Assembly: GCA_029977305.1 (NCBI GenBank)
Contig: JAPOLF010000002.1
Location: 1-41,071 of the forward strand
Direction of reading: 5' to 3'
Source of the DNA: a bacterium
GTDB lineage: Bacteria > Chloroflexota > Chloroflexia > Thermomicrobiales > UBA6265
Length of the DNA: 41,071 bases
Made by a program: the position numbers and the translations under genes. The notes under the pieces are model-generated. The model saw only the letters and a list, made by a program, of their open reading frames with translations, was not told the DNA's origin and searched no databases. Of this stretch, positions 2,248-37,459 are shown in pieces; positions within the stretch are counted from its first letter, which is position 1; each line of letters begins with the position of its first letter.

Positions 2248-2388
2248 GGTGCTGTCCTTGTCGCTCCCTGATGGTGGACTGCCCCTATGATAGGGCGATG
2301 CAGCGGGAGCCCCGCCCTGATTCCGTGAATGTGCGGTGAATTTGGGACTCCCGGCCCGAGACGCAGTGCGAGAAACGAGGAAGACCCG

Positions 2389-10480: not shown

Positions 10481-10497
10481 GGGGGTGCTCCTCTCGG

Positions 10498-12531: not shown

Positions 12532-12566
12532 TGGATACCTCCCGGTGATGCGAACGTGGTGGCGGA

Positions 12567-12926
12567 TTAGCGGTCCATCGTGGGCGCGCCGGCTTCGGCG
12601 GCGGTGGTGGTGCCTTCGGCGAGGTAGACGTCGTAGACGATCCCCGGTGCGCGCTCCTCGCTCATGAAGGGGGAGAGTTGCTCGCCGGAGTATTCGCGCC
12701 ATGGGTTGTCGAGCCAGCCTTGGTAGTCTTCCCGCTTCGCCCAGAGGGCGGTGACGAGGACTGGCCCCTCGGGATCGGGGTGGGCGTGGATCTCGACGCT
12801 CAGACAGCCGTGCTGCTTCATCGCGTTGCCGGGGACGTCGATGCGCCGGAAGACCTCCAGCAACTGGGCTTGCATGCCCGGCTTGGGCTGGAGGAAGAGC
12901 ACGCTGCGCGCCGGACCGTGGGACAT
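12567..12926 (-). CDS. Small ABM-fold (antibiotic-biosynthesis-monooxygenase-like, dimeric alpha-beta barrel) protein
   Basis: 119 aa. The pattern LFLQPKPG...LLEVF...GCLSVEIH...DPEGPVLVTALWAKREDYQGWL fits the ABM ferredoxin-like fold signature. First gene of the ABM-hyuA-hyuB transcription unit. Confidence 0.6.
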   Translation of the reverse strand: MSHGPARSVLFLQPKPGMQAQLLEVFRRIDVPGNAMKQHGCLSVEIHAHPDPEGPVLVTALWAKREDYQGWLDNPWREYSGEQLSPFMSEERAPGIVYDVYLAEGTTTAAEAGAPTMDR

Positions 12927-13030
12927 GGGTGCAACTCCTTGGCATCGAACGCGGATGAGTGACGCCCGGTATCATCGCCCGACACGGGGCAATGGTCCAA
13001 CAGTGGTGCCCGGTGCGATGTGAGGCACGA

Positions 13031-14134
13031 ATGAGAGAGATCACGGCGGACAATCTGGCGGCATTGGCGATCGGTGCCGGCATTCTCGGGACAGGTGGCG
13101 GCGGCAATCCGCGGGTGGGGATGCTCACCGCGCTGCAGCACGTGAAGGCGGGTGCGCCGATCCGGGTCGTCGGGATCGAGGAGGTTGGGGACGACGCCTT
13201 CGCGACGAGCGTGGGTGGGATGGGTGCCCCGGTCGTCTCGGTCGAGCGACTGCCGCGCGGAGATGAGCCGCTCAACGCCCTGCGTGCGCTGGAGCACCAT
13301 CTGGGTCGGGCATTCACGCATCTCATCCCCGGGGAGATCGGCGGCGCAAACAGCATGCGGCCGCTGATCGTCGCCGCGCAGACGGGCCTCCCGGTGGTCG
13401 ATGGCGACGGCATGGGCCGCGCCTTCCCGGAACTGCAGATGGACACCTTCACGATCTACGGGGTGCCCCCGACCCCGGGGGCGATTTGCGATCCGCGAGG
13501 ACACGTCGCGATCTTCGATGGCATCGCCGAGGCGCAGACGCTGGAGCGGTACGCCCGCGCGGTGACGATCCAAATGGGTGGCGCTGCCGGATATGCCTTC
13601 CCCCCGATGGATGCCGAGCAACTGCGGCGGACGACGATCCCCGGCACCATCACCCTCGCGCAGCGGATCGGCGAGGCGGTGCTCGGGGCGCGCAACGGCC
13701 GGGGCAATCCGATCGACGCGGCCTTGGCGGTCTCAGGCGGTCGGCGCCTCTTCCACGGCAAGATCACCGATGTCGAGCGGCGGTTGGAGGGTGGGTTCGC
13801 GCGGGGCATCGTGGTGATCGCCGGGGCAGACGAGGATGAGGGGCGCACGCTCCACATCGACTTCCAGAATGAGAACCTGATCGCGCGGGACGGACAGGGC
13901 GCCGTGTTGGCGGTGGTGCCCGATCTGATCTGCATCGTCGATCAGGATTCCGCCGAGCCGATCACCACCGAGTTGCTGCGCTACGGCCTTCGGGTCGCGG
14001 TGTTGGCGATCCCGGCACCGGAATTGCTGAAGACCCCCGAGGCCTTGGCGGTCGTCGGTCCGGCGGCCTTTGGCTATCCGGACGTCGCATATGAGCCGAT
14101 GGACGGCGTCTTCGGGGTTGGCGCGCACGGCTGA
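13031..14134 (+). CDS. DUF917-family protein, paralogue 1
   Basis: Start chosen at MREITADNL (367 aa). Signature blocks [39 protein letters not shown] and PDLICIVDQDSAEPITTELLRYGLRV. About two-thirds identical by eye to paralogue 2 (21623-22726). Confidence 0.85.
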   Translation: MREITADNLAALAIGAGILGTGGGGNPRVGMLTALQHVKAGAPIRVVGIEEVGDDAFATSVGGMGAPVVSVERLPRGDEPLNALRALEHHLGRAFTHLIPGEIGGANSMRPLIVAAQTGLPVVDGDGMGRAFPELQMDTFTIYGVPPTPGAICDPRGHVAIFDGIAEAQTLERYARAVTIQMGGAAGYAFPPMDAEQLRRTTIPGTITLAQRIGEAVLGARNGRGNPIDAALAVSGGRRLFHGKITDVERRLEGGFARGIVVIAGADEDEGRTLHIDFQNENLIARDGQGAVLAVVPDLICIVDQDSAEPITTELLRYGLRVAVLAIPAPELLKTPEALAVVGPAAFGYPDVAYEPMDGVFGVGAHG

Positions 14135-14233: not shown

Positions 14234-15673
14234 ATGTCACCGATTTCCCGGCGCTCGCTCATCCAGTCCGCGGCGGCGCTCGCCGCGACCCCCGTGGCCG
14301 CGGAGCAGTGGTCGATCACCAGCGCCATGGCGCAAGAGCCAAGCGCGCCGATCAGCGTCTACGCCAGTGGACTTTTCACGCCGCGCGGCCTCACCTTCGG
14401 GCCGGACGGCAAGCTCTACGTGGCCCTTGGTGGAAACGGCACGGCGGGAGCGGCCCCGAGCGCGGTGCGGATCGAGGACGGATGCGGCGTGGGCGTCGCG
14501 CACGGCCAGCCCTCCACGCAGGGGATGTCCGGTGCCGTGCAGGGGCCGGGTTCGGTGGCGTTCCTCGGCGATCAGCTCTATCTCCTGCAGGACTCCGAGG
14601 ATGACCGAGGCGATCTCATCTCCACCTACCCGAATGGCGTCTACACGGTGGCCAGCGACGGCGTCTGCACCTTGCTGGCAGATGTGTCCACGTGGATGAA
14701 CGAGAACCCGACCAAGGAGATCCCGGCGGATCGCGGCAAGCTGGGCGAGACCTTCGCGATGCTCGCGGGAGACGGCTTCCTCTGGGTCATCGAATCGAAC
14801 GAGGGGCAGGTGCTGAAGGTCACCCCGGACGGCACCATCACCCGCGTCGTTGACCTCTCCGAGGGACACCCGGTTCCGACCTGCTGTGCCGCCGCCCCGG
14901 ATGGCGGGCTGTACGTCGGAAACCTCACCGACGCGCCGTACCCGACTGGCAAGGCGCAAGTGATCCATGTCAAGGCCGATGGCTCGGTCGAGACGGTCTG
15001 GACCGGGCTGACGATGCTGGTCGGCCTCGCCACGGTGGACGGCACGCTCTACGCCTGTGAGATGGCGACCAACAACACGACGCAACCGCCCTTCACCCAG
15101 CCCGGGACCGGGCGCATCGTGAAGCAAAGCGGCCCCGACAAACTGACCGAGGTTGTCTCCGAGCTCGACTTCCCGATCGGCATGACGGTGGGCCCGGACG
15201 GGTTCCTCTACGTGTCGACCCCGTCCTTCGGTGGCGATGGGCCGAGCGGGTCGGTGCTGCGGATCGATCCGTCGGCGACCTTCCTCAGTGCTCCCGCGAA
15301 TCTCTACGACAGCGCGACTTGCCCTGGGTTCCAGGAGGCGTGGAAGGCGCAGCAGTCGGTTTTCGCCACCATGACCGCGAACGCCGACAAGCCCGTGCCG
15401 ACCGCCGAGGCGGCGATCCCGGCAAACACCGCCCCGGTGACCATCGTCAACTTCACCTTCGACCCGGGAAGCCTGACGATTGACGCCGGCCGGACCGTCA
15501 CCTGGACCAACAAGGACAGCGTGCCGCACACCGCGACCTCAAAGGACGGCACGTTCGATTCGGGCAACCTGAACGAAGGCCAGTCGTTCTCGTTCACCTT
15601 CGACAAGCCGGGGACGTACGACTACATCTGCACTTACCATCCGTACATGGTCGGGACGATCGTCGTCGAGTAG
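14234..15673 (+). CDS. Tat-exported beta-propeller-like protein with C-terminal cupredoxin (amicyanin/plastocyanin-like type-1 copper) domain
   Basis: Twin-arginine signal MSPISRRSLIQSAAALAATPVAA. Repeated PRGLTFGPDGKLYVA / APDGGLYVG / GPDGFLYVS strands (NHL/SMP-30/ScyD-like propeller). The C-terminal 80 aa (15431-15670) carry TWTNKDSVPHTATS and YICTYHPYM, i.e. the His...Cys-x2-His-x2-Met copper ligand pattern (Cys codon at 15629-15631). Confidence 0.8.
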   Translation: MSPISRRSLIQSAAALAATPVAAEQWSITSAMAQEPSAPISVYASGLFTPRGLTFGPDGKLYVALGGNGTAGAAPSAVRIEDGCGVGVAHGQPSTQGMSGAVQGPGSVAFLGDQLYLLQDSEDDRGDLISTYPNGVYTVASDGVCTLLADVSTWMNENPTKEIPADRGKLGETFAMLAGDGFLWVIESNEGQVLKVTPDGTITRVVDLSEGHPVPTCCAAAPDGGLYVGNLTDAPYPTGKAQVIHVKADGSVETVWTGLTMLVGLATVDGTLYACEMATNNTTQPPFTQPGTGRIVKQSGPDKLTEVVSELDFPIGMTVGPDGFLYVSTPSFGGDGPSGSVLRIDPSATFLSAPANLYDSATCPGFQEAWKAQQSVFATMTANADKPVPTAEAAIPANTAPVTIVNFTFDPGSLTIDAGRTVTWTNKDSVPHTATSKDGTFDSGNLNEGQSFSFTFDKPGTYDYICTYHPYMVGTIVVE

Positions 15674-21622: not shown

Positions 21623-22726
21623 CTAGCCGCGGAGCCCGCTGCCGAAGACGCCGGGCATCGGGATGAATTCCACCTCCGGATACCCGAATGCGGCAGGACC
21701 GACGACACGCAGCGCCTCGGGGGTCTTCAGCATCTCGCTGGCCGGGATCGCCATCACGACGACGCGCATGCCGTACCGCAGGATCTCGGTGGTGATCGGT
21801 TCGGCCGAGTCTTGATCCACGATGCAGATGAGATCCGGGACCACCGCGAGCACGGCACCGGTGTCGTCCCGCGCGATGAGGTTCTCGTTCTGGAAGTCGA
21901 TGACCATCGCGCGGTCGCGGTCGGGGCCGATGCCCTCGAGATGGAGGACGCCGCGGGCGAAACCGCCGACGAGGCGGCGCGAGACGTCGACGATCTTGCC
22001 GTGGAAGAGGCGCTCGCCTCCCGCGACGGCGAGCGCGGCGTCCACCGGATCGCCGGTGCCACCGCGAGCCGCGAGCACCGCCTCGCCGATCTTGGTCGCC
22101 AGGGTGTAGGTGCCGGCCACGGTGGTGCGGCGGAGCTCGGCGGCGGTCATCGGCGGGAAGGCGTAGCCGCTGGAGGCGCCCATCTCGACGCAGACGACCC
22201 GGGCGTAGCGTTCGAGGGTCTGGGCGTCGTCGATGCCGTCGAACGTGACGACGTGGCCGCGCGGATCGGCGATGGCCGCCGGCGTCGGGGCGACGCCGTA
22301 GATGGTGAAGGTGTCCATCTGGAGCTCGGGGAAGGCGCGACCCATGCCGTCACCGTCGATCACGGGCAGGCCGGTCTGGGCGCCGACGATGAGGGGTGCC
22401 ATGGAGTTGATACCGCCGATCTCGCTGGCGATGAGGTGGGTGAAGCGGCGACCGATGTGGTCCTCGAGCGCGCGCATGGCGAGCAGCGGCTCGTCGCCGC
22501 GGTTGATGCGTTCATTCGAGACGATGGGTGCGCCCATGTTGCCGACGGTGGTGGCGTAGGCGTCGTCACCGATCTCGTCGAGCGAGACGACGGTGATGGA
22601 GCGCCCGGCGCGCAGGTGGGTGAGTGCCTCGAGTTTGCCGACGAAGGGGTTGCCGCCGCCTCCGGTGCCGAGGATGCCAGCCCCGATGGCGAGTGCTTCG
22701 AGCATCGATTCCGTCACCTGGTACAT
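21623..22726 (-). CDS. DUF917-family protein, paralogue 2
   Basis: 367 aa. [39 protein letters not shown] and PDLICIVDQDSAEPITTEILRYGMRV. Collinear with paralogue 1 over its full length. Confidence 0.85.
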   Translation of the reverse strand: MYQVTESMLEALAIGAGILGTGGGGNPFVGKLEALTHLRAGRSITVVSLDEIGDDAYATTVGNMGAPIVSNERINRGDEPLLAMRALEDHIGRRFTHLIASEIGGINSMAPLIVGAQTGLPVIDGDGMGRAFPELQMDTFTIYGVAPTPAAIADPRGHVVTFDGIDDAQTLERYARVVCVEMGASSGYAFPPMTAAELRRTTVAGTYTLATKIGEAVLAARGGTGDPVDAALAVAGGERLFHGKIVDVSRRLVGGFARGVLHLEGIGPDRDRAMVIDFQNENLIARDDTGAVLAVVPDLICIVDQDSAEPITTEILRYGMRVVVMAIPASEMLKTPEALRVVGPAAFGYPEVEFIPMPGVFGSGLRG

Positions 22727-22904
22727 GAACCGTCGACTCCTTGGTGATCATCGTGATCCGTTCCGCGCGCCGCGACGAGCAGGTCGCGTGCGAAGCCAGG
22801 GAAGCATCGCATGAACGCTCCGTGCGCGGTGATAAGATCGTCTCGGCGACGCGGGAAAGAGGCGTCGCGCGATCGGGATTCGCCTCAGCAATCGGGAGAG
22901 ACAG

Positions 22905-24458
22905 ATGAGTCTGCGCATCGGCATCGACGTCGGCGGAACGAACACCGACGCCGTCCTCATGGACGATTTGAAAGTAGTTTCCAAGATCAAGACGCCGACG
23001 ACCGCGGACGTGACCACGGGCATCACCAACGGCCTCAAGTTCGTGCTCGAGAGCTCCGGCACCGCAACCTCTGCGGTGAACGGCGTGATGATCGGCACCA
23101 CCCATTTCACCAATGCGGTGGTGGAGCGACGCCGCCTGCAGAAGACGGCCGCGGTGCGACTCGGGTTGCCGGCGACGGCGGCCCTTCCTCCGATGGTTGA
23201 CTGGCCGCAGGACCTTGCCGACACGATCGGCGGCAACAACTACCTCTGCCACGGTGGCCATGAGTTCGACGGGCGCCCGATCTCCGCCCTGCGGCCGGAT
23301 GAGATCAAGGCGGTTGCCGAGGATCTGAACGCGAAGGGGATCACCGCGGTCGCGGTCTCCTCGGTCTTCTCGCCGGTCAACACAGACCTCGAAAATGAGG
23401 TCGCGGCGATGCTCCGCGAGTGGGTGCCGGGTGTCTCGGTCACTCCGTCGCACGAGATCGGGCGCATCGGCCTGCTCGAGCGCGAGAATGCGGCCATCCT
23501 CAATGCCTGCCTGCGGCAACTGGCGGCCGAAACCGTTGCCGCCTTCCGCAAGGCGATCAGCGACATGGGGATCACCGCGCCGCTCTATCTGACCCAGAAC
23601 GACGGCACCCTGATGAGCGCGGAGTTCGCCGAGCAGTACCCGGTGCTGACCTTCGCGTCGGGACCGACGAACTCGATGCGTGGCGCCGCCTTCCTCTCGG
23701 GGTTGAAGGACGCCATGGTGGTTGACGTGGGCGGCACGACGTCGGACGTCGGCGCGCTGACCCACGGCTTCCCGCGTGAGGCATCGGTGGCCGTTGATAT
23801 CGGCGGGGTGCGCACCAACTTCCGCATGCCGGACGTCTTCTCGTTCGGCTTGGGCGGCGGCTCGCTGGTGAAGGAGGACCCGCTGCGGATCGGGCCGCAG
23901 TCGGTCGGCTTCCGGATCACGCAGGAGGCCTTGGTCTTCGGTGGCAACACCTTGACGACCACCGACATCGCGGTGGCCGCGGGTGTCGCTGAGATCGGCG
24001 ATCCCTCGCGCGTCGCCCACCTCGACAAGGCGCTGGTCGCGGCGGCCATGGCTCGCATCCAAGAAATGAGCGAGGCGGCGGTCGACCGGATGAAGACGAG
24101 TGCGGAGCCGGTTCCGGTGATCGTGGTCGGCGGCGGCAGCGTCCTGATCGCGAAGCCGCTTGCCGGGGCATCGGAGATGGTGAAGCCGAACCATTACGAG
24201 GCCGCCAACGCGGTCGGCGCGGCGATCGCGCAGATCTCTGGCGAGGTCGATCGGGTCTATTCGCTGGCGGGGATGTCCCGCGACGCGGCGCTCGACGATG
24301 CGAAGAGTGAGGCATCGCAGAAGGCCGTTGAGGCGGGGGCCGACCCCTCGACGGTGCAGATCGTCGACGTCGAGGACGTGCCGCTGGCGTACCTGCCGGG
24401 CAACGCGACGCGGATCCGGGTGAAGGCGGTGGGGGACCTCACGCTGGTGGGGAGGTAA
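22905..24458 (+). CDS. Hydantoinase/oxoprolinase-family ATPase, short HyuA-like form with no adjacent HyuB partner
   Basis: 517 aa. ASKHA motifs RIGIDVGGTNTDAVL and MVVDVGGTTSDVGAL. GGGAGAG RBS. About 160 aa shorter than the canonical HyuA at 10498-12531. Followed after a 3-nt gap by DUF917 paralogue 3. Confidence 0.8.
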   Translation: MSLRIGIDVGGTNTDAVLMDDLKVVSKIKTPTTADVTTGITNGLKFVLESSGTATSAVNGVMIGTTHFTNAVVERRRLQKTAAVRLGLPATAALPPMVDWPQDLADTIGGNNYLCHGGHEFDGRPISALRPDEIKAVAEDLNAKGITAVAVSSVFSPVNTDLENEVAAMLREWVPGVSVTPSHEIGRIGLLERENAAILNACLRQLAAETVAAFRKAISDMGITAPLYLTQNDGTLMSAEFAEQYPVLTFASGPTNSMRGAAFLSGLKDAMVVDVGGTTSDVGALTHGFPREASVAVDIGGVRTNFRMPDVFSFGLGGGSLVKEDPLRIGPQSVGFRITQEALVFGGNTLTTTDIAVAAGVAEIGDPSRVAHLDKALVAAAMARIQEMSEAAVDRMKTSAEPVPVIVVGGGSVLIAKPLAGASEMVKPNHYEAANAVGAAIAQISGEVDRVYSLAGMSRDAALDDAKSEASQKAVEAGADPSTVQIVDVEDVPLAYLPGNATRIRVKAVGDLTLVGR

Positions 24459-24461
24459 CCC

Positions 24462-25556
24462 ATGCGGCAGGTCACGTCGGAAGATCTGAATGACATTGCC
24501 CTCGGGGCGGCGGTGCTCGGCACCGGTGGTGGCGGCGATCCGTACATCGGGAAGTTGATGGCGCAGTCCTCGATGGCCACGCACGGCGCGGCGACGATGA
24601 TGTATGCCGACGAACTCGACGATGACGACCTTGTCATCCCCTCGGCGATGATGGGTGCGCCGACGGTGATGGTCGAGAAGGTGCCGTCGGGGAAAGAGAT
24701 TGTCACCGCGTTCAAGGCACTGACCGAGTACTACGGGAAGGAGCCGCGGGCGACGATGTCCTGCGAGGCGGGCGGGCTCAATTCGACCACCCCGTTCACG
24801 GTGGCGGTCGAACTCGGGATCCCGATCGTCGACGCCGACATGATGGGCCGGGCCTTCCCTGAGTTGCAGATGTGCACGCCGACCCTTGCGGGCATCAACG
24901 CGACTCCCATGGCTGTTGCGGATGAGAAAGGCAACAGCGTCATCATCAACACCGTCGAGAACCGATGGACCGAGACGTTCGCTCGGACGCTCACCGTCGA
25001 CATGGGGTGCTCCGCGATGATCGCGCTGTACGCCATGACCGGGAAGCAGGTGAAGGAGGCGTGCGTGCTCGGCACGATCTCCTACGCCGAGCGGATCGGG
25101 CAGGCGATCCGGCGGGCACGGGCGAACCACCTCGACCCGGTGGAGACGGTGCGTGCGGCGACCGGTGGCTACATCCTCTGGCAGGGAAAAGTGGGGGATG
25201 TCGCGCGGCGGACCGAGACGGGATTCGCGCGAGGCGATGCCCGCATCGACGGCACCGGGGCGTTCGACGGACGATCGCTGTCGCTCTCGTTCCAAAATGA
25301 ATTCCTGATTGCGCGAGACGGTGACACCGTGCTAGCGACGACGCCCGACCTGATCACCGTGCTCGATGCGGAGACCGGCGTGGCGATCACGACCGAGACG
25401 CTGCGGTACGGCTACCGGGTGGTGGTGATCGCGATGCCGTGTGACCCGCGGTGGCGCACGGCTGAGGGGTTGCAACTCGTCGGCCCGGATTACTTCGGCT
25501 ACGGGGTGCCGTACATCCCGGTCGAGCAGCGGATGAAGGCGCTCGGCGGGCGCTGA
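24462..25556 (+). CDS. DUF917-family protein, paralogue 3 (diverged)
   Basis: 364 aa. [37 protein letters not shown] and PDLITVLDAETGVAITTETLRYGYRV. Shares the family blocks but is clearly more distant from paralogues 1 and 2. Confidence 0.8.
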   Translation: MRQVTSEDLNDIALGAAVLGTGGGGDPYIGKLMAQSSMATHGAATMMYADELDDDDLVIPSAMMGAPTVMVEKVPSGKEIVTAFKALTEYYGKEPRATMSCEAGGLNSTTPFTVAVELGIPIVDADMMGRAFPELQMCTPTLAGINATPMAVADEKGNSVIINTVENRWTETFARTLTVDMGCSAMIALYAMTGKQVKEACVLGTISYAERIGQAIRRARANHLDPVETVRAATGGYILWQGKVGDVARRTETGFARGDARIDGTGAFDGRSLSLSFQNEFLIARDGDTVLATTPDLITVLDAETGVAITTETLRYGYRVVVIAMPCDPRWRTAEGLQLVGPDYFGYGVPYIPVEQRMKALGGR

Positions 25557-25566
25557 GGACACGACG

Positions 25567-25899
25567 ATGACCAACAACGAGAACCAGACCACCTATGTGC
25601 TCACCGAGGAACAGGCGCTCGACATGCTGGCGTTCCTCGCCAGCGCGGCGGAGATCTCGCTGCACGAGCCGACCTATTACGGGACCTTCCGCCTGATCGA
25701 CGCGGCGAGTCGCCTGATGGGGTACCTCCTCGAGAGCAACCCGGAGCTCGCAGAGTCGTTCATGCCGGGGTGGAAGCAAGACATTGACACCCGAAAGGTG
25801 TGGATGATGTGGGACCGCCCCGCGTACCAGCAGTTCCTCAAGGAGGCGCCTGCGGTGATCGCCGCCGAGATCAAGCAGCGGCAGGAGGCGGCGGAATGA
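25567..25899 (+). CDS. Small conserved-looking hypothetical protein (110 aa), no family assignable by eye
   Basis: ATG ORF with host-like codon usage, 10 nt after the DUF917-3 stop. Its stop overlaps the nitroreductase start (ATGA at 25896-25899). Predicted soluble and helical (LTEEQALDMLAFLASAAEISLHEPTYYGTFRLIDAASRLMGYLLE). No TM segment or signal peptide. Confidence 0.6.
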   Translation: MTNNENQTTYVLTEEQALDMLAFLASAAEISLHEPTYYGTFRLIDAASRLMGYLLESNPELAESFMPGWKQDIDTRKVWMMWDRPAYQQFLKEAPAVIAAEIKQRQEAAE

Positions 25900-26468
25900 G
25901 CGAGTTCAGCCCGGAGGCGGACGCCTTCTTCCAGACGCTGAAGACGCGGCGCGTGTGCCGGTCCTACACCGATCAACCGGTCGCCGATGCGCAGTTGCGG
26001 CGCATCACCGAGGCCGGACGATGGGCCAGCAGCGGCGGCAACCGACACATCCACAAGTTCCTGATCGTGCGGGATGCCGAGACGATTCGGCGGGTGCGGT
26101 CGGTGGCGCCGGGGATGCTGGTGGAACCGCCGGCGATGATCGTGATCCTGACCGACAAAGAGGCCGCCGAGCGGGAATGCATCCAACTTGATGTGGATCA
26201 GATCAACCAAGGGGATGTCGGCACCGCGGCCATGAACATGCAGAACATGGCCCATGCGCTCGGACTCGGATCGTGCCCGGTGACCTCCTTCAGCCACTCC
26301 GGCGTCGGGGTGATGCTCGGCTTGCCCGACCATCTCGAAGCGGAGTGGATCATCATGATCGGCCATCCGAAGCCGACCCAGCGCGGGCTCGGCACCGGTG
26401 CGCCGAAGCCGCTGACCGCGCGCGATCTCACGTGGTGGGACCGCGTCGGACACCACGATCCTGTCTAA
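25896..26468 (+). CDS. Nitroreductase-family FMN-dependent oxidoreductase
   Basis: Start chosen at MSEFSPEADAFF (190 aa). TRRVCRSYTDQPV...LRRITEAGRWASSGGNRH and the later LGLGSCPV are typical nitroreductase-fold blocks. The track ORF start at 25800 lies inside the previous gene. Confidence 0.8.
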   Translation: MSEFSPEADAFFQTLKTRRVCRSYTDQPVADAQLRRITEAGRWASSGGNRHIHKFLIVRDAETIRRVRSVAPGMLVEPPAMIVILTDKEAAERECIQLDVDQINQGDVGTAAMNMQNMAHALGLGSCPVTSFSHSGVGVMLGLPDHLEAEWIIMIGHPKPTQRGLGTGAPKPLTARDLTWWDRVGHHDPV

Positions 26469-26507
26469 AAGAGTCGCCACGCGAACCCCACGAGGAGCCC
26501 TCACACG

Positions 26508-27593
26508 ATGAGTATGACGTTGCACATCGAAGACCTGCCTGATCTCGCGCGCGGCGCGGCCTTCCTCGGGAGCGGCGGCGGCGGCAACCCGTACATCGGG
26601 CGGCTGATGGTCGAGCGGGCGATGCGCGAAACCGGACGCCCGCTGGAACTCTTGGATCTCGAGGAACTCCCCGACGACGCCTTCGTGATCACGACCGCGA
26701 TGATGGGTGCGCCCACCTGCATCGTGGAGAAGCTGCCGGAGGGGATGGAGGCTGCCCACTCGCTGCGGCGGCTGGAGGAGCACCTTGGTCGCAAGGCGAC
26801 GGCGACGATGCCGATCGAGGCGGGCGGGGTGAACTCGATGATCCCGCTGGTGGTGGGGATGCGGCTCGGGTTGCCGGTCGTCGATGGCGACGGTATGGGC
26901 CGGGCTTTCCCGGAGCTCTATCACGAGACCTTCCACATTTACGGGGTCTCGGGCACGCCCATGGTGATCACCAATGATCATGGCGACCAGACGCTGCTCG
27001 ACACCCATGACAATTACATGATGGAGTGGCTCTCGCGCGGGATCGCGATCCGGATGGGAGGCGTCGCGTACATCGCCGAGTACCCGATGGACGGGGCGAC
27101 CGCGAAGCGCGTCTCGGTGAGCGGGACGATCGGAATGGGTCTGCGGATCGGGCGCGCGATCCGCGAGGCACGCGAGCAGCACCTCGATCCGTTCGACCAC
27201 CTGATCCGGTCGATGGAGGGGACGAGCTACTCCCCGGCGCGGGTGATCTTCACCGGGAAGTTGATCGAGGTGTTCCGGCGGACCAAGGACGGTTTCGCGC
27301 TCGGGACGGTGAAGATTCAGGAGCTGGGCGGTCCGCGGGTGATGACCATCGACTTCCAGAACGAGAACCTCATAGCGATGGTTGATGACGAGGTGCTGGC
27401 CGTCGTGCCGAACCTGATCAACATTCTCGATGCGGAGACCGCGGAGCCGATCACCACCGAGGAGTTGCGCTACGGGCAGCGGGTGAAGGTGATGGTGGTC
27501 TCGGTGCCGCCGATCATGCGCACCCCGGAGGCGATTGCCGTGTGGGGGCCGCGAACGTTCGGATACGACGTCGATTTCGAGCCGCTCACCTGA
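26508..27593 (+). CDS. DUF917-family protein, paralogue 4 (diverged)
   Basis: 361 aa. [39 protein letters not shown] and [26 protein letters not shown]. Confidence 0.8.
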
Positions 27594-30022: not shown

Positions 30023-30105
30023 CACGTGGCTGACGGTGCTAGCAGAAGTTCCGCCGATATGCGATACACCACGCAGCGGTGCCGAATCACCAGCAGGGGA
30101 ACACC

Positions 30106-33100
30106 ATGGAGAACCCATTGACCGTGCCGCCGGCGGCCGACGCGAGCAAGGATCCGGTTGATCAGAAACTGGGCGTCTGGCGGGAGCGGCTGGTCGATCT
30201 GACGAAGCGCAATCCGCTGCTGGGATTGAATCGCGCGCGGACGACGAAGATCCAGGTGCTCACCCCGACGATTGACGAACTCTTCACGATGGTCGTCATC
30301 GATGAAGACGCCTTGAAGATGCCCTTCGCGCGGAAGGGTGCGCCAAAGCCGTTGCCAAAGAAGGGGGCGATTGCGCCTGCTGCCCCCACGCTGGTGCCCT
30401 CGGCGGTGAGCACCAGCGACCCCGCAGGGGTTGAGGACGAGCCAGATCAGTCAGTGATGCCGGCGGTTGACCAGGATGGTCCTCCAGTCATCCCTGAGGC
30501 CCAGGCGGACGCCATCGACACCCCCACGTCGCCGGCACCTGATGCCGCTGCCACCCCCGCGCCGGATTCGGGCGCGATCCCCTCGACGGTGGGATTGGAG
30601 GACGAACCGGCGGCGGTGTGGATCGTCGCGCCGGGGGACGTGACGCTGGATGTCGACGATGCGCAACTCTTTTCCAAGCTGCGCCGCCTGAGGGACAACT
30701 CGCGCACGACCGTGGCCGAGCGCGGCGTCACCACGCTCCACCTGACGTTGGGCACGGTGACCTGGACCGATCCGGTCCTCGGCGAGTCAAAGGCGCCGTT
30801 GGTGCTGGTGCCGTGTTCGCTCGAACGGTCGGGTGCGGATCGTCCGCTCACCTTGGTGCCGACCGATGACGAACCGACGGTGAACCCCGCGCTCGCGATC
30901 CTCGTGCGCGAGCGGACCGGAAAGGTCCTGCCGGAGTTCCCCGAGGAGCCGACGCCGGAGACGCTGCGCGAGATGATCTCGGCGGTCACCGCGATGCTCG
31001 GCGAGGGCTATCTGGTCAGCGAGGAAGCCTGGCTCGGCACCTTCTCCTTCGAGACCCTGGCGATGTGGCGCGATCTCGGGGTGATGGCGCCCCAGGCGCG
31101 GCAGAACGCGGTGGTGCAGTCCTTCGCCAAGATCGTGCCGGCGCAGCCGCCGGACGGGTCGGAGGCGTTGGGAAATGATCTCGACGTGCTGGAGCCGAAG
31201 GTGCAGGCGCCGCTGATGGTCCTGCCCGCCGACTCGAGCCAATATGAGGCTCTGATCATCGGGAGACGAGGAAAGAACTTGCTGGTGAACGGCCCTCCGG
31301 GCACCGGGAAGTCGCAGACCATCACCAACATCATCGCGGACACGCTGGCGAACGGGCAGACGGTGCTCTTCGTGAGCGCGAAGTCGGCGGCGCTCGAGGT
31401 GGTGCATGAGCGGCTGCGCAAGTTGGGGCTTGGGCAGTTCGTGCTCGAGGCGCACAGCACGCAGTCGGGCCGCATGCGGATCATGGACGACTTGAAGGAG
31501 ACGCTGCGGGCGGCGGGGTCGGCGAAGGACGTCAACCTCGAGGAGGCGCGGCTGCGGTACATGCAGGTGAGGGATCGCCTCAACCTCGCGGTGCGGGAAC
31601 TCCACGCCACGCGCGAGCCGATGGGGGTCTCGGTCTACACCGGACTCGGCCGCTACGCGAAGCGGATCGGGGCGCCGGACGTGGCGGCGGCTCTGCCATG
31701 GCCGGATCTGACGTTGGTCACCCCGGCGGAACTGCAGACGTGTGTCGATGCGTTGGCGGCGATCCAGGCTGAGAAGGCGGTCTACGACGCGCGTGCGACG
31801 CATCCATGGCGCGGGTGCGTGGTGCAGGACGCGGGGCTGGCCTCCACCGAGCGCGTCGTCGGGGCGCTCACTGCGCTCCGAACGGGCGCGGCGGAGATCA
31901 CCGCGGCGTGGACCACGGTGGCCCCGGTCCTCGGCGAGGCTTCGACGCGCACCGTGGCGGACCTGCAGGGGATGCGGGAGGCGTTGGCGCTCCTCGCAGA
32001 TGCGCAGGCCCTCCCGGCAGGGTGGGAGAGCGATGACCCGACGACGCTGGCCACGCGCGCCGCGACCCTGCGTGATGCGGCCGAGCGCGCGACGGTCGCA
32101 CAGGAGGCCCGTGCCGCCTTCGCGGAGCATGCATCCGGGACGGACTACGCCGCTGCAGCAACACTGCTCCAGGAGGGCGCGGCCAAATATGGCGGGTTCC
32201 TGTCGCGGATGTTCGGCGGCTATGGGGCGTGGAAGAGTCAGGTGCAGCAGGTCGTGCAGCCACGATCGATGAATCAGGCGGACATGGCCGCGTTGGCGAC
32301 CCTTGCCGCGAACGCTGCCACCGCGGAGGCGGCCCTCGCGCCGTTGGCCATCACGGTGCAACCGCTGCTCAGTTCACCCGAGTCGTGGCGCGATCCGGAG
32401 GTGCTGCGGAGCACTGCGGCGCGTTGGCAGGCGGCGAGCGTAATTCGCGCCGCGGTGCTTTCCGGGGGTGGGACCGGCGGATCGATCACGCCGGAGGTGC
32501 GGGCAGCGGCGGGGGCGATCGGCACCGCGCTGGCGCCGACGGGTCCGTTTGCCGCTGCGGTGGAGACCACCTCTGCGCTCTTCCCCGCGGACTTCGCTGA
32601 TGAGAAGCCATTGGCACAGAGCACATTGGGGGAGATCATCGCGCGGAGCGACGCCGCATTGGCGGAACGCCCGCGGCTGGCAGAGTGGGTGCGCACGCGG
32701 GCGGCGATGGATCGGGCCCGGGCGGTCAATCTCGGGCCGTTCATCGATGCAGTTCCCGCGGGGTCTGGTGGCGAACTGATCGTCGCGTTCGAGCGGCGCT
32801 TCTGGCAGCGCTGGGCCGATGCGTGGATCACGGCGGTGCCGGCCCTGCGCGAATTCAGCGGGGAGCAGCGGGTGGCACTGATCGCCGAGCTGCGGAAGGC
32901 CGATGATGACCTCCGCAAGCTGGCGGGCCAAGCGGCGGTGGCGGGGGCGAGCCGTGCAGCGGCGCGCGTCTCGCAGTCGGGTGACGCGAACAAGGATTCG
33001 CAACTGGGGATCCTCAAGCGAGAGCTGCAGAAGAAGCGGCCTCGCCCCCTGCGACGACTCTTCACCGACATCCCGGACGTGCTGCAGTCGATCAAGCCCT

Positions 33101-35121
33101 GCATGATGATGAGCCCGGTCTCGGTTTCGACGTTCTTGCAGCCGGGACTGCTGAGTTTCGACGTGGTGGTGTTCGACGAGGCGTCGCAGTTGCCCCCGGC
33201 CGAGGCGATCCCGACGATCCTGCGCGGGCGGCAGGTGATCGTCGCCGGTGATGACAAACAATTGCCACCGACCGCCTTCTTCGATTCCTCGATCTTCGAT
33301 CCGGACGAGGAGGACGATGAGGAGGAGCAGCTCGAGTCGTTGCTGCGGGAGTGCGCCGCGAGTGTCGGACTGTTCCAGCCGGCGACGCTGAAGTGGCACT
33401 ATCGATCCCGCGACGAGCGGCTGATCGCCTTCTCCAACCATGAGTTCTATCAGGGCGAGTTGATCACCTTCCCGGGCCCGGGGTTCCCGGAGGATCGCGG
33501 CGTGAAGCTCGCGTATGTGGCCGACGGCGTCTGGGACCGCGGTGGCAGTCGGAAGAACCGCGCCGAGGCGCGGATGGCGGCCGATCTCGCGATCAAGAGC
33601 CTCGAGGAGCACCCCGAGCGCTCGGTCGGTGTGGTCGCGATGAATGTCACCCAGAAAGAAGCCATCGAGGATGCACTCGCGGAGCGCGTGCAGGATCGCC
33701 CGGAGCTGCGGGATCGGATCTTCGGCGAGACCGGTGAGGAACCGTTCTTCGTCAAAGCGCTCGAAAACGTGCAGGGCGACGAGCGCGACGTGATCATCAT
33801 CAGCGTGGGATACGGCAAGGATGCGAAGGGTGGGTTCTCACTGAACTTCGGACCGTTGAACCGCGAGGGCGGTTGGCGACGGCTCAATGTGTTGATCACC
33901 CGTGCTCGCTACCAGACCGTGCTTGTGACGAGCCTGCGCAGCGGCGATCTCGCCGGAGTGAGCCCGGACAACCTCGGGGTGAAGGCACTGGCCAGTTTCA
34001 TCGCCTATTGCGAGCGTGGAGGCACCCTGCCCGACGGCTCGGCGCGCATCACCAACGCGGAGACGAATGATTTCGAGGATGCGATCAAGGCAGCACTCGA
34101 GGCACGGGGGATGAAGGTCGATGCGCAGGTCGGGGCGTCGGCGTACCGGATCGATCTTGCCGTGCGCGACCCGCGTGACGAGTCGAAGTATGTGCTCGGC
34201 GTCGAGTGTGATGGTGCGACCTACCACAGTTCGCGCACGGCACGTGATCGTGATCTGAATCGTCAAAGCGTCCTCGAGGGCATGGGATGGAAACTGGTTC
34301 GCATCTGGTCGACGGATTGGTTCGCGGATCCAACGGGCACGATGGACCGGGTGGAGCAGGTCTATCGGCGGGCGATCGAGTTGTCGACTCCGGAGACGAA
34401 CGTCGCGGCCCCCGTGGCGCCAACCGCGCCGCAACCGACCACCGCGACGCCACCCGTTGATCCCCCCTCCGCATCCGCGCAGGCCGCGGAACCCACCACG
34501 GTGGCGGAGGCGGTTGCCCAGATCTCGCAGGAACAGGAGGCGCCTGCCGCCCCGCATGGGGCAGATGCCCCGGCCGGAATCCCCTATCCCGTGACCGCCT
34601 TTGCCCAGCCATTCGCCGACGATTTGCTCCGCAACGATGCGTGGCGCTTGCGGCTCGGGGCGGTGATCGGGATGGTGGTGAAAACCGAGACCCCGGTGCA
34701 CCCGGAGGTCGTGCTGGATCGGGTGAAGGACGCCTGCGGCAAGCCGCGCGCGACCGCGAATGTGCGATCCAATTTCGAGGCCGGTGTGCAGCAGGCGATG
34801 CACGAGCATGGGGTGGTGCTCGGCGAGGACGGCTTCCTGCGATGGGGAACGCAATCCCTTGCCACGTTCCGGATCGGTGAGGGAGCCACGTTGCGACCCG
34901 TGGACCAGATCCCAGCCGAGGAGATCACCATGGCGGCGGTTTGGACGGTGGAACAGCAGTTTGGCATGCCGAAGGAGGCACTCGTGGTCGAGACTGCCAA
35001 GACGCTCGGCTATACGAAGAAGCCGAACGCCGAGAGCGTGGTGCGCATCTCCACCATCATCGATGACGCGCTCGACCGGGGTGTGCTGCGGCAATCCGGC
35101 AATCAGGTCGTGACCCCGTGA
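30106..35121 (+). CDS. Large SF1 (Upf1/DNA2-like) helicase fused to a DUF4011-type N-terminus, a Vsr/DUF559-type endonuclease domain and a DUF3320-like C-terminus; Hhe-like candidate defence or repair protein
   Basis: 1671 aa from the ATG at 30106 (AGGGGA RBS; GTG at 30079 is possible). DUF4011-like WRERLVDLTKRNPLLGL and ERGVTTLHLTLGTVTW...APLVLVPCSL. Helicase motifs: I GPPGTGKSQT (31291-31320), II VVFDEASQ (DEAS at 33175-33186), III VIVAGDDKQLPP, WHYRSRDERLIAFSNHEFY, V VQGDERDVIIIS, VI LNVLITRAR. Nuclease core YRIDLAV...LGVECDGATYH...DRDLNRQSVLEGMGWKLVRIWSTDWF (34144-34323). Confidence 0.9.
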   Translation: MENPLTVPPAADASKDPVDQKLGVWRERLVDLTKRNPLLGLNRARTTKIQVLTPTIDELFTMVVIDEDALKMPFARKGAPKPLPKKGAIAPAAPTLVPSAVSTSDPAGVEDEPDQSVMPAVDQDGPPVIPEAQADAIDTPTSPAPDAAATPAPDSGAIPSTVGLEDEPAAVWIVAPGDVTLDVDDAQLFSKLRRLRDNSRTTVAERGVTTLHLTLGTVTWTDPVLGESKAPLVLVPCSLERSGADRPLTLVPTDDEPTVNPALAILVRERTGKVLPEFPEEPTPETLREMISAVTAMLGEGYLVSEEAWLGTFSFETLAMWRDLGVMAPQARQNAVVQSFAKIVPAQPPDGSEALGNDLDVLEPKVQAPLMVLPADSSQYEALIIGRRGKNLLVNGPPGTGKSQTITNIIADTLANGQTVLFVSAKSAALEVVHERLRKLGLGQFVLEAHSTQSGRMRIMDDLKETLRAAGSAKDVNLEEARLRYMQVRDRLNLAVRELHATREPMGVSVYTGLGRYAKRIGAPDVAAALPWPDLTLVTPAELQTCVDALAAIQAEKAVYDARATHPWRGCVVQDAGLASTERVVGALTALRTGAAEITAAWTTVAPVLGEASTRTVADLQGMREALALLADAQALPAGWESDDPTTLATRAATLRDAAERATVAQEARAAFAEHASGTDYAAAATLLQEGAAKYGGFLSRMFGGYGAWKSQVQQVVQPRSMNQADMAALATLAANAATAEAALAPLAITVQPLLSSPESWRDPEVLRSTAARWQAASVIRAAVLSGGGTGGSITPEVRAAAGAIGTALAPTGPFAAAVETTSALFPADFADEKPLAQSTLGEIIARSDAALAERPRLAEWVRTRAAMDRARAVNLGPFIDAVPAGSGGELIVAFERRFWQRWADAWITAVPALREFSGEQRVALIAELRKADDDLRKLAGQAAVAGASRAAARVSQSGDANKDSQLGILKRELQKKRPRPLRRLFTDIPDVLQSIKPCMMMSPVSVSTFLQPGLLSFDVVVFDEASQLPPAEAIPTILRGRQVIVAGDDKQLPPTAFFDSSIFDPDEEDDEEEQLESLLRECAASVGLFQPATLKWHYRSRDERLIAFSNHEFYQGELITFPGPGFPEDRGVKLAYVADGVWDRGGSRKNRAEARMAADLAIKSLEEHPERSVGVVAMNVTQKEAIEDALAERVQDRPELRDRIFGETGEEPFFVKALENVQGDERDVIIISVGYGKDAKGGFSLNFGPLNREGGWRRLNVLITRARYQTVLVTSLRSGDLAGVSPDNLGVKALASFIAYCERGGTLPDGSARITNAETNDFEDAIKAALEARGMKVDAQVGASAYRIDLAVRDPRDESKYVLGVECDGATYHSSRTARDRDLNRQSVLEGMGWKLVRIWSTDWFADPTGTMDRVEQVYRRAIELSTPETNVAAPVAPTAPQPTTATPPVDPPSASAQAAEPTTVAEAVAQISQEQEAPAAPHGADAPAGIPYPVTAFAQPFADDLLRNDAWRLRLGAVIGMVVKTETPVHPEVVLDRVKDACGKPRATANVRSNFEAGVQQAMHEHGVVLGEDGFLRWGTQSLATFRIGEGATLRPVDQIPAEEITMAAVWTVEQQFGMPKEALVVETAKTLGYTKKPNAESVVRISTIIDDALDRGVLRQSGNQVVTP

Positions 35122-35317
35122 CGGTGTGACGCACCGCGCGGGAGCTGGCGGGTGAGACTGCGCTCAACCAGGTCGTGACTGGGCGCATCTCCGGGATGGG
35201 TGCTGCATCGTGCTGAACGAGACGGCCCCTGAGCCACCCGCATGATGGAGAGAAACTGATCCGCCCCCTCGGGCGTAGACTCTCATGAGTTGCCTGAGCG
35301 GGATGGGAGTGATTGCG

Positions 35318-37459
35318 ATGCATGCACTGCGCCGGATGATGATCGCGTTGTCGTTGCTGATGCTCGCCTCGGTGGGGTTGGTCCAGCCAACGGCAGCGGA
35401 GGGTGCCCCGGCGGTCGACATGCTGGTGATCGCCCAAGGCGTCGGGAAACTCCCGCCCGGCAAGGCCTCGTGGCAACTGCGGGCGTATGAGGCGGATCCC
35501 GCGGGTATTGCGCCGCAGCCCCAGGCGGGATTCATCATCGCGCCGGCCGGGGGTTTGCTGACAGAGACCGGCAGCACCTACGTTTCGCTTGGCGCGGGGC
35601 AAGGGGCTTACATTCCCGGCGATCCAGCATCGAAGGTCTATGCCATGCGTGCCCCGGCCACGGTTTGGCAGATCGGCTTGTCGGCCTCGTCTTCGACGAC
35701 CGGCGTGGGCACGGTGAAGTACGCCGGCAGCCCCTTCTCGGTGACCACCGATCAGCCCTCGCAGATCCAACTCCTGGCGGCGACCGTGCCGAGCAACACC
35801 TTGGTCTACGTCCCGACTGGAACGGTCCCCACCCTGGTGGTCGTCGCCGATGGCACCGCCCGCTTGGAGCGTCCGGGACAGGAGCCATTCCTGATGACCG
35901 CCGGACAGGCGACCGTGGTGCGCGGCGACGGGCAGATCCGCGGCGTGGGTTCGACGCCGGCCTTGGTGATGGCGGCGCGCGTGGGCGAACCGGTGATGTT
36001 GCCCACCTCCCTGACGCCGACCCCCACGCCTACCGCGATCCCGCCGACCATCGCCCCGGTGGCGGCTGCCTCCACCATCAAGGTCATCGCCAAGGCCTGC
36101 CCGGTCAACACGCCGGTGTCGATGCTGGGGACCGCCTGCACCCAACCGGCCGGGCAGATCCCGATGGTGCTGAGTGGCGGCTCCACCGCGCGCGGCACCA
36201 CCGCTGCTGATGGCTCGCTCTCCTTCGCCAATGTCCCCGCCGGCACCTACAACCTGATGGCCGAGCTGCCCGGCGATTTCGTGAAGTCCTTTGCCTCGTG
36301 CATCGCGACCGATGGGACGCAGCGAGCCACCAACGGCACCGGTCTCAACGATGTGACCGTCTCCGTTCCTGCGGGATCGACCGTGACCTGCACGTGGTAC
36401 ACGGTCCCCGAGGATGCGCGCGGCGAGACCGGCACGGCAGGGATCGATCTCTTCGTCACCCGCTGCCCGGTGGGGTACATGGGCGTGCAACTCGCTGACG
36501 ATTGCACCGATCCGGTGGTCGACGCCATGTTCCAACTCGATGGGATCACGCCCCAATCCGGCCGAACCGACGCGTCCGGAGCGATGCGATTCACCAATCT
36601 CGCCTCCGACGACTACAGCCTGATGACGGATGCGCTCTCGGCTGGTCGCGGGCTCTACATGATCTGCCGCACCGATGACAGCCAAGTGGTTTCCACGACC
36701 ATCGACGTGCGCACCGCCGAGATCGCGGTGGCCGAGGGGGCTGCGGTCTCATGCCGCGCATTCGCGATGGACGAGGCGTTGTTCCGCTACTTCTCCACCA
36801 TGCCGGAGGAGAACGGGTCCCTCACGGTGCCGTTCCTCTTCTGTCCGCAGGGATCGCCAGCCGGGGAGTTGGATGTCGACGGCTGCGACCAACTGATCGA
36901 GGACATCTCGCTGGTGTTGCTGCGCGACGGGCAGGTGATCCCTCCAACCTCCGTGGAGTCCACGCGCGCGATCTGGGAAGGCCTGACTGATGGCCGCTAC
37001 GAGGTGGTCGCAGATGGGGTGAGGGTCGGGATCACCGCAATCCAACTTGGGGACGAGCGGTGCTGCAACGCATCGGGTGGCTTTGACCTCAAGGTGAATG
37101 CCGCTATGGGCCCGGTGCTGCTTCCGCTCTATTTCGTGCCGGTCGTTCCGGATCAGGATGGTGACGGAGTTGACGATGAGCAAGAAATGGCCTTGGGCAC
37201 CAACCCGCTGAATCCCGATTCGGATTTCGACGGTATGGATGATGGCGCGGAACTCACCATAACCGGAACCGATCCGACCAACGGGCTGAGCAACGATTTC
37301 GGCATCGCCGGGACCCGCGACTCGGACGGCGACGGCCTCGCTGACCTGCGTGAGGCGCAGTTGATGACCGACATCAACGAGGCCGACACCGACGAGGATG
37401 GCGTCGACGACTACACCGAATTGGTGAACGGCACCGATCCGCTGGCGGCGGACAACTAG
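35318..37459 (+). CDS. Sec-secreted multidomain protein: N-terminal beta-rich domain, PT-rich linker, three Cys-containing beta-sandwich repeats, C-terminal thrombospondin-type-3-like calcium-binding repeats
   Basis: Start preferred at MHALRRMMIALSLLMLASVGLVQPTAAEG (classic Sec signal, GGGAG RBS); ATG at 35285 is an alternative. Three ~105-aa repeats begin near 36075, 36445 and 36828 (C-P...DGS/SGA-F-N...Y-L...C...C). The D-x-D-x-DG-x-x-D-x-x-E repeats (DQDGDGVDDEQE, DSDFDGMDDGAE, DSDGDGLADLRE, DTDEDGVDDYTE) occupy 37148-37456. Confidence 0.8.
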   Translation: MHALRRMMIALSLLMLASVGLVQPTAAEGAPAVDMLVIAQGVGKLPPGKASWQLRAYEADPAGIAPQPQAGFIIAPAGGLLTETGSTYVSLGAGQGAYIPGDPASKVYAMRAPATVWQIGLSASSSTTGVGTVKYAGSPFSVTTDQPSQIQLLAATVPSNTLVYVPTGTVPTLVVVADGTARLERPGQEPFLMTAGQATVVRGDGQIRGVGSTPALVMAARVGEPVMLPTSLTPTPTPTAIPPTIAPVAAASTIKVIAKACPVNTPVSMLGTACTQPAGQIPMVLSGGSTARGTTAADGSLSFANVPAGTYNLMAELPGDFVKSFASCIATDGTQRATNGTGLNDVTVSVPAGSTVTCTWYTVPEDARGETGTAGIDLFVTRCPVGYMGVQLADDCTDPVVDAMFQLDGITPQSGRTDASGAMRFTNLASDDYSLMTDALSAGRGLYMICRTDDSQVVSTTIDVRTAEIAVAEGAAVSCRAFAMDEALFRYFSTMPEENGSLTVPFLFCPQGSPAGELDVDGCDQLIEDISLVLLRDGQVIPPTSVESTRAIWEGLTDGRYEVVADGVRVGITAIQLGDERCCNASGGFDLKVNAAMGPVLLPLYFVPVVPDQDGDGVDDEQEMALGTNPLNPDSDFDGMDDGAELTITGTDPTNGLSNDFGIAGTRDSDGDGLADLREAQLMTDINEADTDEDGVDDYTELVNGTDPLAADN

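Follow-up and report, generated by a model that had tools for sequence, protein, structure and literature searches.

A putative short-form ProA/PDC-S37 DUF4011 helicase-nuclease residing among metabolic genes of a Thermomicrobiales bacterium

Hhe, a stand-alone gene whose product combines DUF4011, a superfamily 1 (SF1) helicase, a Vsr-type nuclease and DUF3320, is reportedly a single-gene defense system described by Gao et al. in 2020. The same set of domains occurs in the gene studied here, a helicase-nuclease open reading frame (ORF) that encodes 1671 residues at positions 30106-35121 (+ strand, stop codon included) of a 41,071-nucleotide stretch of contig JAPOLF010000002.1 from a Thermomicrobiales bacterium; this whole stretch is referred to below as the window. 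As a single gene, Hhe protects against the phages lambda, T3, T7 and PhiV-1, and its activity is abolished in the nuclease mutant E1731A (bioRxiv 10.1101/2022.06.16.496414). The candidate triggers of Hhe are phage DNA-metabolism genes, and one of these, Bas63 g40, was validated as toxic in Hhe-bearing cells (PMC11482910). Related proteins are catalogued as the anti-phage protein ProA in NCBIfam and as the candidate family PDC-S37 in PADLOC. Families of the PDC series were proposed from their embedding in defense loci, and in one study that assayed eight candidates, PDC-S37 not among them, only four gave protection (PMC12881386). A publication defining ProA was not found in the literature, where the apparent match ProAct proved to be the name of a software.

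Our comparisons place the protein as a putative short, core-only form of the ProA/PDC-S37 group, devoid of the ProA N-terminal module and with Hhe as a more distant sister. As to its function, we hold with moderate confidence that it would be ATP-driven surveillance and cleavage of nucleic acid, with phages or other mobile elements as its target, a mechanism proposed because of the Hhe results and the biochemistry of Upf1-like motors.

Placement among Hhe, ProA and PDC-S37

The best PADLOC match of the protein is PDC-S37 (PDLC05009), which aligns with residues 16-1667 over profile positions 4-1543 of 1550 (1136.5 bits, E = 0), and by this profile match the gene is assigned to that candidate family. 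In NCBIfam the best match is ProA (NF058533) with 1160.4 bits, under the curated cut-off of 1500; residues 179-1638 align with profile positions 447-1903, collinearly from DUF4011 through helicase and nuclease to DUF3320 and the winged helices. The resemblance to Hhe, which an earlier sequence-only reading of this DNA had put forward, stood in part. Homology at the level of the superfamily (E 6e-237) and an identical domain order were recovered, but the NCBIfam Hhe model (NF042953) gave 789.7 bits against an equivalog cut-off of 2000, with a match in two stretches, the best of which joins residues 838-1432 to profile positions 1098-1689 of 1797. The PADLOC Hhe model (PDLC02194) aligned with residues 840-1434 only (562 bits, E 7e-169). 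The NCBIfam cut-off was also missed by all nine relatives tested (776-917 bits). With 790 bits against the curated cut-off of 2000, membership of the protein in the Hhe equivalog was rejected.

Long forms of the family (L008, L039, L126 and L127; 1950-2230 residues) score 2020-2372 bits across the whole ProA profile. Ahead of DUF4011, which begins at residues 433 and 388 of L039 and L008 according to Pfam, they carry some 350-430 additional residues, an N-terminal module corresponding to profile positions 1 to about 350; no Pfam match was found in the approximately 390-430 N-terminal residues of L008 and L039, the two proteins checked. The short forms (this protein, L002, L011, P0003 and P0009; 1540-1680 residues) reach 1160-1250 ProA bits and start aligning only at profile position 346-447 or thereabouts. 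Long and short forms alike match PDC-S37 best, the long ones from residue 368 or so, and the relatives L002, L011 and P0003 score 1212-1425 bits with this profile. The open frame begins at 30079 (GTG) and ends at 35121, and the upstream gene stops at 30022, so that an N-terminal extension of the ORF is impossible. The short form is not an annotation artifact: besides this limit on the ORF, most of the 120 highest-ranking database matches are 1550-1610 residues long. The ProA N-terminal module probably holds the key functional difference between the long and the short forms.

Of the described relatives, PDC-S37 shares with this gene an end-to-end collinear match, the length class and the single-gene organization. 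It differs in that the family is defined by genomic embedding, whereas this gene stands in no defense locus, and in that DUF4011 of the copy described here is enlarged by a disordered insert of some 85 residues. ProA is collinear with the protein in its core and differs by the approximately 350-430 residues that precede DUF4011. Hhe possesses an essential nuclease residue, E1731, for which the invariant E1367 is the candidate equivalent here, and differs in that its profile leaves the helical insertion at the center of the protein, and a large part of the N-terminal half, unaligned. Thousands of database proteins share the short form, and the gene is an ordinary new member of a very large, already catalogued family.

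Gene structure, domain architecture and conserved residues

The complete coding sequence (30106-35121, as are all features of the gene on the + strand) has a full-length PDC-S37 match and a ratio of nonsynonymous to synonymous divergence (dN/dS) of 0.08 against a close relative, L082. The ATG at 30106 is preceded by GGGGAACACC, and a GGGG Shine-Dalgarno-like run lies 7 nt before it in the upstream intergenic region of 83 bp (30023-30105). Downstream, an intergenic region of 196 bp (35122-35317) precedes a TSP3-repeat secreted-protein gene, the start of which (35318) was set by alignment of orthologs. Both gaps had been given with these lengths in the sequence-only reading, which had also described the composition of the gene as native; its GC content at third codon positions (GC3), 0.83, falls within the range of its window neighbors (0.79-0.93). 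The ORF is a genuine gene and not a chance ORF because its GC content is 0.83 at third against 0.50 at second codon positions, more than 5000 homologs exist and dN/dS is 0.08. Neither a sigma-70-type promoter pattern nor an intrinsic-terminator pattern was found when both intergenic regions were scanned, and therefore an independent transcription unit can only be presumed; as a promoter pattern of this type was not found, the gene may be co-transcribed with the co-directional upstream genes.

Two AlphaFold models built from 65-sequence alignments cover residues 1-1075 (mean predicted local distance difference test score, pLDDT, 82.0) and 1000-1671 (80.8). The protein starts with the DUF4011 alpha/beta domain (residues about 17-340; 30154-31125), recognized by Pfam at residues 28-264 (PF13195, E 9e-24) and modelled with pLDDT 85-95 outside its insert (model m6ddf89ec345a); the domain may act as a substrate sensor or loader, and a PDB relative of DUF4011 was not found by profile or fold search. 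The insert within it (residues 84-167; 30355-30606) is rich in Pro, Ala and Asp and predicted to be disordered from its composition and a pLDDT of 32-47. It is specific to the lineage, being present also in the 74% identical relative P0002, and the family consensus is much shorter at this place.

The motor is an Upf1-like SF1B helicase split by a helical insertion of 545 residues. The first part of RecA1 (residues about 375-451; 31228-31458) carries the Walker A motif GPPGTGKS with K402, and its second part (33094-33285) carries motif II DEAS (D1024, E1025) and motif III GDDKQLPP in invariant columns; Pfam AAA_19/AAA_11 matches are located at 381-438 and 1017-1057. The insertion between them (residues 452-996; 31459-33093) is all-helical and Ala-rich, with pLDDT mostly 85-96. 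It is left unaligned by the Hhe profile, and a significant match to it was not found in the PDB. RecA2 (residues about 1090-1282; 33373-33951), with WHYRS, QGDERD and the arginine-finger region RRLNVLITRAR, is matched by AAA_12 at 1091-1276 and modelled with pLDDT above 85 (model m668c5173facd), and Foldseek relates it to IGHMBP2, Dna2, SETX, Upf1 and Sen1 with E values of 1e-8 to 1e-6. Sequence and fold searches of the PDB returned only Upf1-like SF1B helicases (IGHMBP2, Upf1, Sen1/SETX, Dna2, Aquarius and nsp13), the best sequence matches having E 4e-11 and those to IGHMBP2, Upf1 and Sen1 beginning at the second RecA1 part; a solved structure of any family member was not found in these searches. 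IGHMBP2, Upf1, Sen1/SETX and Dna2 share the RecA1/RecA2 core and the motifs of the protein. Dna2 is a helicase-nuclease fusion as well, but its nuclease is RecB-like and N-terminal to the motor, whereas the one found here is Vsr-type and C-terminal; none of the four has DUF4011 or the tandem winged helices, and no solved counterpart was found for the 545-residue helical insertion in RecA1.

The Vsr-type endonuclease domain (MTES_1575/DUF559; residues about 1320-1426; 34063-34383) is matched by PF18741 at residues 1323-1418 with 121.2 bits against a cut-off of 38.2, and beneath it by DUF559 (PF04480) with 22.7 bits against 20.6; a compact alpha-beta-beta-beta-alpha-beta core is predicted with pLDDT 84-96. 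It is followed by a linker rich in Ala, Pro and Thr (residues 1427-1488; 34384-34569), disordered as judged from composition and pLDDT 37-51, and by tandem winged-helix-like modules (residues 1489-1671; 34570-35118; pLDDT 92-97) that overlap a DUF3320 match at residues 1517-1555. The models render these modules as two helix-helix-helix-strand-strand units, in agreement with the description of DUF3320 as two winged helix-turn-helix domains beside an MTES_1575 Vsr-fold nuclease (Anantharaman et al. 2013, PMC3710099). The order of domains proposed from the letters alone (DUF4011, SF1 helicase, Vsr-DUF559 nuclease, DUF3320-like) was recovered by Pfam, with the DUF3320 match of 24.5 bits marginally under the cut-off of 25.

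The helicase and nuclease motifs, which had been reported as intact, were all found in the protein: GPPGTGKS at 396-403, DEAS at 1024-1027, GDDKQLPP at 1048-1055, QGDERD at 1223-1228 and ITRAR at 1264-1268 in the motor, and IDLAV at 1349-1353, VECDGATYH at 1366-1374, DRDLNR at 1381-1386 and GWKLVRIW at 1394-1401 in the nuclease. Conservation of residues was judged on alignments of 24 and of 65 homologs. The Walker A stretch G396-S403 is invariant in both sets; D1024, E1025, G1048, D1049, R1258, R1259, T1265 and R1266 are further invariant residues of the motor, and the QGD-R core of QGDERD is invariant too, E1226 and D1228 differing in one or a few of the 65. With its Walker A, DExx and motif III, the Q/GDERD motif, the arginine finger and the RecA1/RecA2 fold, the motor has the characters of an Upf1-like SF1B helicase. 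D1350, E1367, D1369, H1374, R1380 and D1383 are invariant in the nuclease, in which Pfam matches above the gathering score, conserved acidic and histidine residues and the predicted core are combined as in Vsr/MTES_1575/DUF559 enzymes. The invariant residues of DUF4011 include N36, P37, L38, R43, R45, E205, R206, G207, T209, T210, L211 and W220.

Function, spread and inheritance

Upf1-like motors typically translocate 5' to 3' on single strands. In the proposed role in defense, the protein would patrol nucleic acid, and its motor would load on single-stranded DNA, branched DNA, or replication and recombination intermediates of an invading phage or plasmid. It would then translocate 5' to 3' on ATP and thereby deliver or license the Vsr-type nuclease for nicking or cleavage of DNA, which would stop the invader and perhaps the infected cell too. 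Binding to the duplex, and recognition of the substrate or auto-inhibition, would be the part of the winged helices and DUF4011.

Signals of defense and mobility in the family count in favor of this role: its occurrence in many phyla, its presence on plasmids and defense genes next to some of its loci. Homologs number more than 5000 scored in the protein database and more than 587 in species-representative genomes (both lower bounds, counted among the matches listed); an exact look-up of the protein itself retrieved no database entry. They span Acidobacteriota, Chloroflexota, Planctomycetota, Firmicutes, Proteobacteria, Actinomycetota, Bacteroidota, candidate phyla and archaea. Among the matches listed, the nearest relatives beyond the lineage show 36-48% identity and belong to Chloroflexota, Acidobacteriota, Rokubacteria and Peribacteria, a mixture of phyla more readily explained by horizontal spread than by vertical descent; those listed in the scan of species-representative genomes do not exceed 42% identity. 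The family is carried by 473 of 72,556 plasmids (242 of Klebsiella and 108 of Ralstonia; 211 conjugative) and is nearly absent from phages (3 of 50,697). One plasmid copy, L126, is a full ProA equivalog on the conjugative IncF plasmid pM63-1 of Klebsiella pneumoniae (NZ_CP063864.1, 27082-32973), where it is flanked by IS1, IS3 and Tn3-family transposases and lies near an AbiJ-NTD4 gene; another long form, L127, is a plasmid copy from Pseudomonas aeruginosa. As a separate observation, the Liberibacter phages P-9PA-3 and P-JXGC-3 (H27/H28) encode helicase-like proteins that share only the part from RecA2 to the early nuclease (query 1085-1406, 38% identity).

The gene had been described earlier as standing alone, and clustering of 948 neighbor ORFs from 80 loci revealed no recurrent partner, the largest cluster occurring in 10 loci at scattered positions. 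Because no partner recurs across these loci, the helicase-nuclease is a single-gene unit without a conserved partner. Clear defense genes are a minority of the 135 ORFs within two genes on either side at 45 diverse loci (family counts were pooled over loci, and the enrichment is descriptive only); they comprise type IV and type I restriction, Cas1, a Cas5/6-type protein, JetD and PDC-S02, with weaker matches to MADS, PbeA and AriA-type models.

A number of observations weigh against a role in defense. Most neighbors at the 45 loci are ordinary genes, and the other 27 GC3-supported genes of the window are all metabolic or transport genes. No integrase, transposase or other mobile-element or defense gene is present in the 41-kb window, as the sequence-only reading had stated for the vicinity of the gene, so that the embedding among defense genes by which PDC-S37 is defined is missing here. 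The composition of the gene is native, and its divergence keeps in step with that of its flanks in two relatives. The cut-offs of both validated families, Hhe and ProA, are missed, and PDC families are candidates based on embedding, half of those assayed having protected. We found no literature report of an anti-phage test or phenotype for PDC-S37 or any short-form member. A large DUF4011 gene is core in every P. aeruginosa isolate, where it forms the right border of the core defense hotspot cDHS1 (PMC10250203). Finally, the substrate, the polarity and the choice between DNA and RNA are inferred here by analogy.

Several of these observations would suit a housekeeping enzyme of genome maintenance in this Chloroflexota lineage, one that acts on stalled forks, flaps, R-loops or mismatches in the manner of Dna2, Sen1/SETX and IGHMBP2 and is descended from, or ancestral to, the defense versions; we regard this explanation as possible, though unlikely. 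The inheritance of the gene in its close lineage speaks for it. In L082, a metagenome contig from JGI, a protein of 97% amino acid identity is encoded in the same gene order (deacetylase, GH4, helicase-nuclease, TSP3 protein and, in the opposite orientation, SIS). The gene is 95.7% identical in nucleotides to that of L082, with a synonymous divergence (dS) of 0.147, and the five flanking genes are 95.2-96.6% identical with dS of 0.11-0.20. In a second lineage (L001/L117, from ENA) a 74% identical protein occupies the same place, and the flanks are 66% (GH4) and 73-75% (TSP3) identical at the protein level. Because gene and flanks are equally diverged in both comparisons, the gene has been inherited together with its neighbors over the span from L082 to L001/L117, under strong purifying selection, and it is a long-resident chromosomal copy outside any defense island. 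The native GC3, the purely metabolic surroundings (shared by the 48% identical relative P0003), the nearest solved folds, which are eukaryotic helicases of genome and RNA surveillance, and the core DUF4011 gene of P. aeruginosa are likewise in line with a housekeeping role.

Against housekeeping stand the patchy and taxonomically mixed distribution of the family, its frequency on conjugative plasmids and the annotation of the closest named relatives as anti-phage. The synteny argument, moreover, comes from two species-level lineages only, and conservation of the locus is already lost in the next relatives at hand (L118, L119, L121, L123 and L124). The question of gene order, which the sequence-only reading had raised as a means to distinguish a variable from a core gene, has a divided answer: the position is kept in the few close relatives available, but more distant ones do not share the order of the locus. 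When the TSP3 protein was used in search of an empty site, two distant homolog clusters (36-37% identity) were found without an adjoining helicase, with the upstream order rearranged too; one of the two, L118, comes from a metagenome-assembled genome (MAG) of Chloroflexota and differs upstream in further respects as well. Two metagenome scans with the TSP3 protein returned only generic TSP3 repeats. Orthologs of the upstream GH4 gene at 64-67% identity, from MAGs of Thermomicrobiales and Chloroflexota, have surroundings unrelated to this locus and are of little use for the comparison.

The short form might also have been domesticated in the Thermomicrobiales-like lineage, in which it would be vertically inherited, fixed in the chromosome and devoted to genome maintenance or the surveillance of RNA-DNA hybrids instead of phage defense. 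We consider this doubtful. If true, it would find a parallel in the core DUF4011 gene that flanks the P. aeruginosa defense hotspot, and the loss of the ProA N-terminal module would mark a switch from an invader-triggered to a constitutive enzyme.

That the protein is a true ortholog (equivalog) of the Escherichia coli Hhe defense protein is highly improbable. It has the same domain order and profile E values of 6e-237 (NCBIfam) and 7e-169 (PADLOC), but its score is far under the Hhe cut-off, the match is broken into two stretches, PDC-S37 and ProA score higher and cover more of the protein, and nine relatives fall under the cut-off in the same manner. A decaying or inactive relic of a defense gene on which selection has been lost, a reading that the position outside a defense island and the two long disordered inserts could suggest, has a next to negligible chance, being contradicted by dN/dS of 0.08 across 1671 codons with no frameshift or stop, by the retention of all motor and nuclease residues invariant in 65 homologs and by a mean pLDDT of 81-82 in both models. 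The probability left over falls to other functions in genetic conflict and to minor rivals. Surveillance and cleavage of invading nucleic acid remains the reading that we prefer.

Neighboring genes and significance

The genes around the helicase-nuclease include an FAD oxidoreductase, a class II aldolase, a creatininase, hydantoinases A and B, several ABC transporters, four S-Me-THD/DUF917 paralogs, a nitroreductase, a deacetylase, GH4, the TSP3-repeat secreted protein, SIS and SBP5. Two hydantoinase/oxoprolinase sets are present (B at 8780-10480, - strand; A at 10498-13452, - strand; A-like at 22905-24458, + strand), and the S-Me-THD/DUF917 paralogs are located at 12959-14134 (+), 21623-22726 (-), 24462-25556 (+) and 26508-27593 (+). 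These genes alternate with peptide and amino-acid ABC transporters and form an unusually redundant region of cyclic-amide catabolism (8780-14134 and 21623-27593). In two ORFs a long N-terminal stretch has no Pfam match: in the one at 10498-13452 (-) the hydantoinase A match begins only at residue 310 of 984, and in the one at 1405-3255 (-), the GC3 of which is low (0.75), the match to class II aldolase begins at residue 341 of 616. Both ORFs may have mis-set starts or fused unlabelled domains, or may be two genes merged.

An ORF of 479 residues (14234-15673, +), situated between two catabolic clusters, shows an SGL/Vgb-lyase-like beta-propeller signal together with a C-terminal cupredoxin of the plastocyanin/azurin type, an uncommon pairing. 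The TSP3 protein downstream of the helicase-nuclease (35318-37459, +) begins with a signal-peptide-like segment, contains Pro/Thr linkers and Cys-rich beta modules, and bears calcium-binding TSP3 repeats at its C terminus. Its restriction to the lineage is extreme: a search of 5.8 billion proteins gave only four homolog clusters, of which two are 36-37% identical.

The label of the helicase-nuclease is corrected by this analysis from Hhe to PDC-S37, that is, a short ProA-like DUF4011 helicase-nuclease. No fewer than three forms make up the superfamily: Hhe, the long ProA that bears the N-terminal module, and the short core-only form; only Hhe and long ProA are named as anti-phage, and the short form is abundant in phyla of soil and sediment. 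What is unusual about the present gene is confined to its long stay in a metabolic chromosomal neighborhood and to the fact that we found no reported test of the abundant form to which it belongs. A long-resident copy among metabolic genes is a reasonable test case for whether such proteins are always immune effectors or whether some of them serve genome maintenance.

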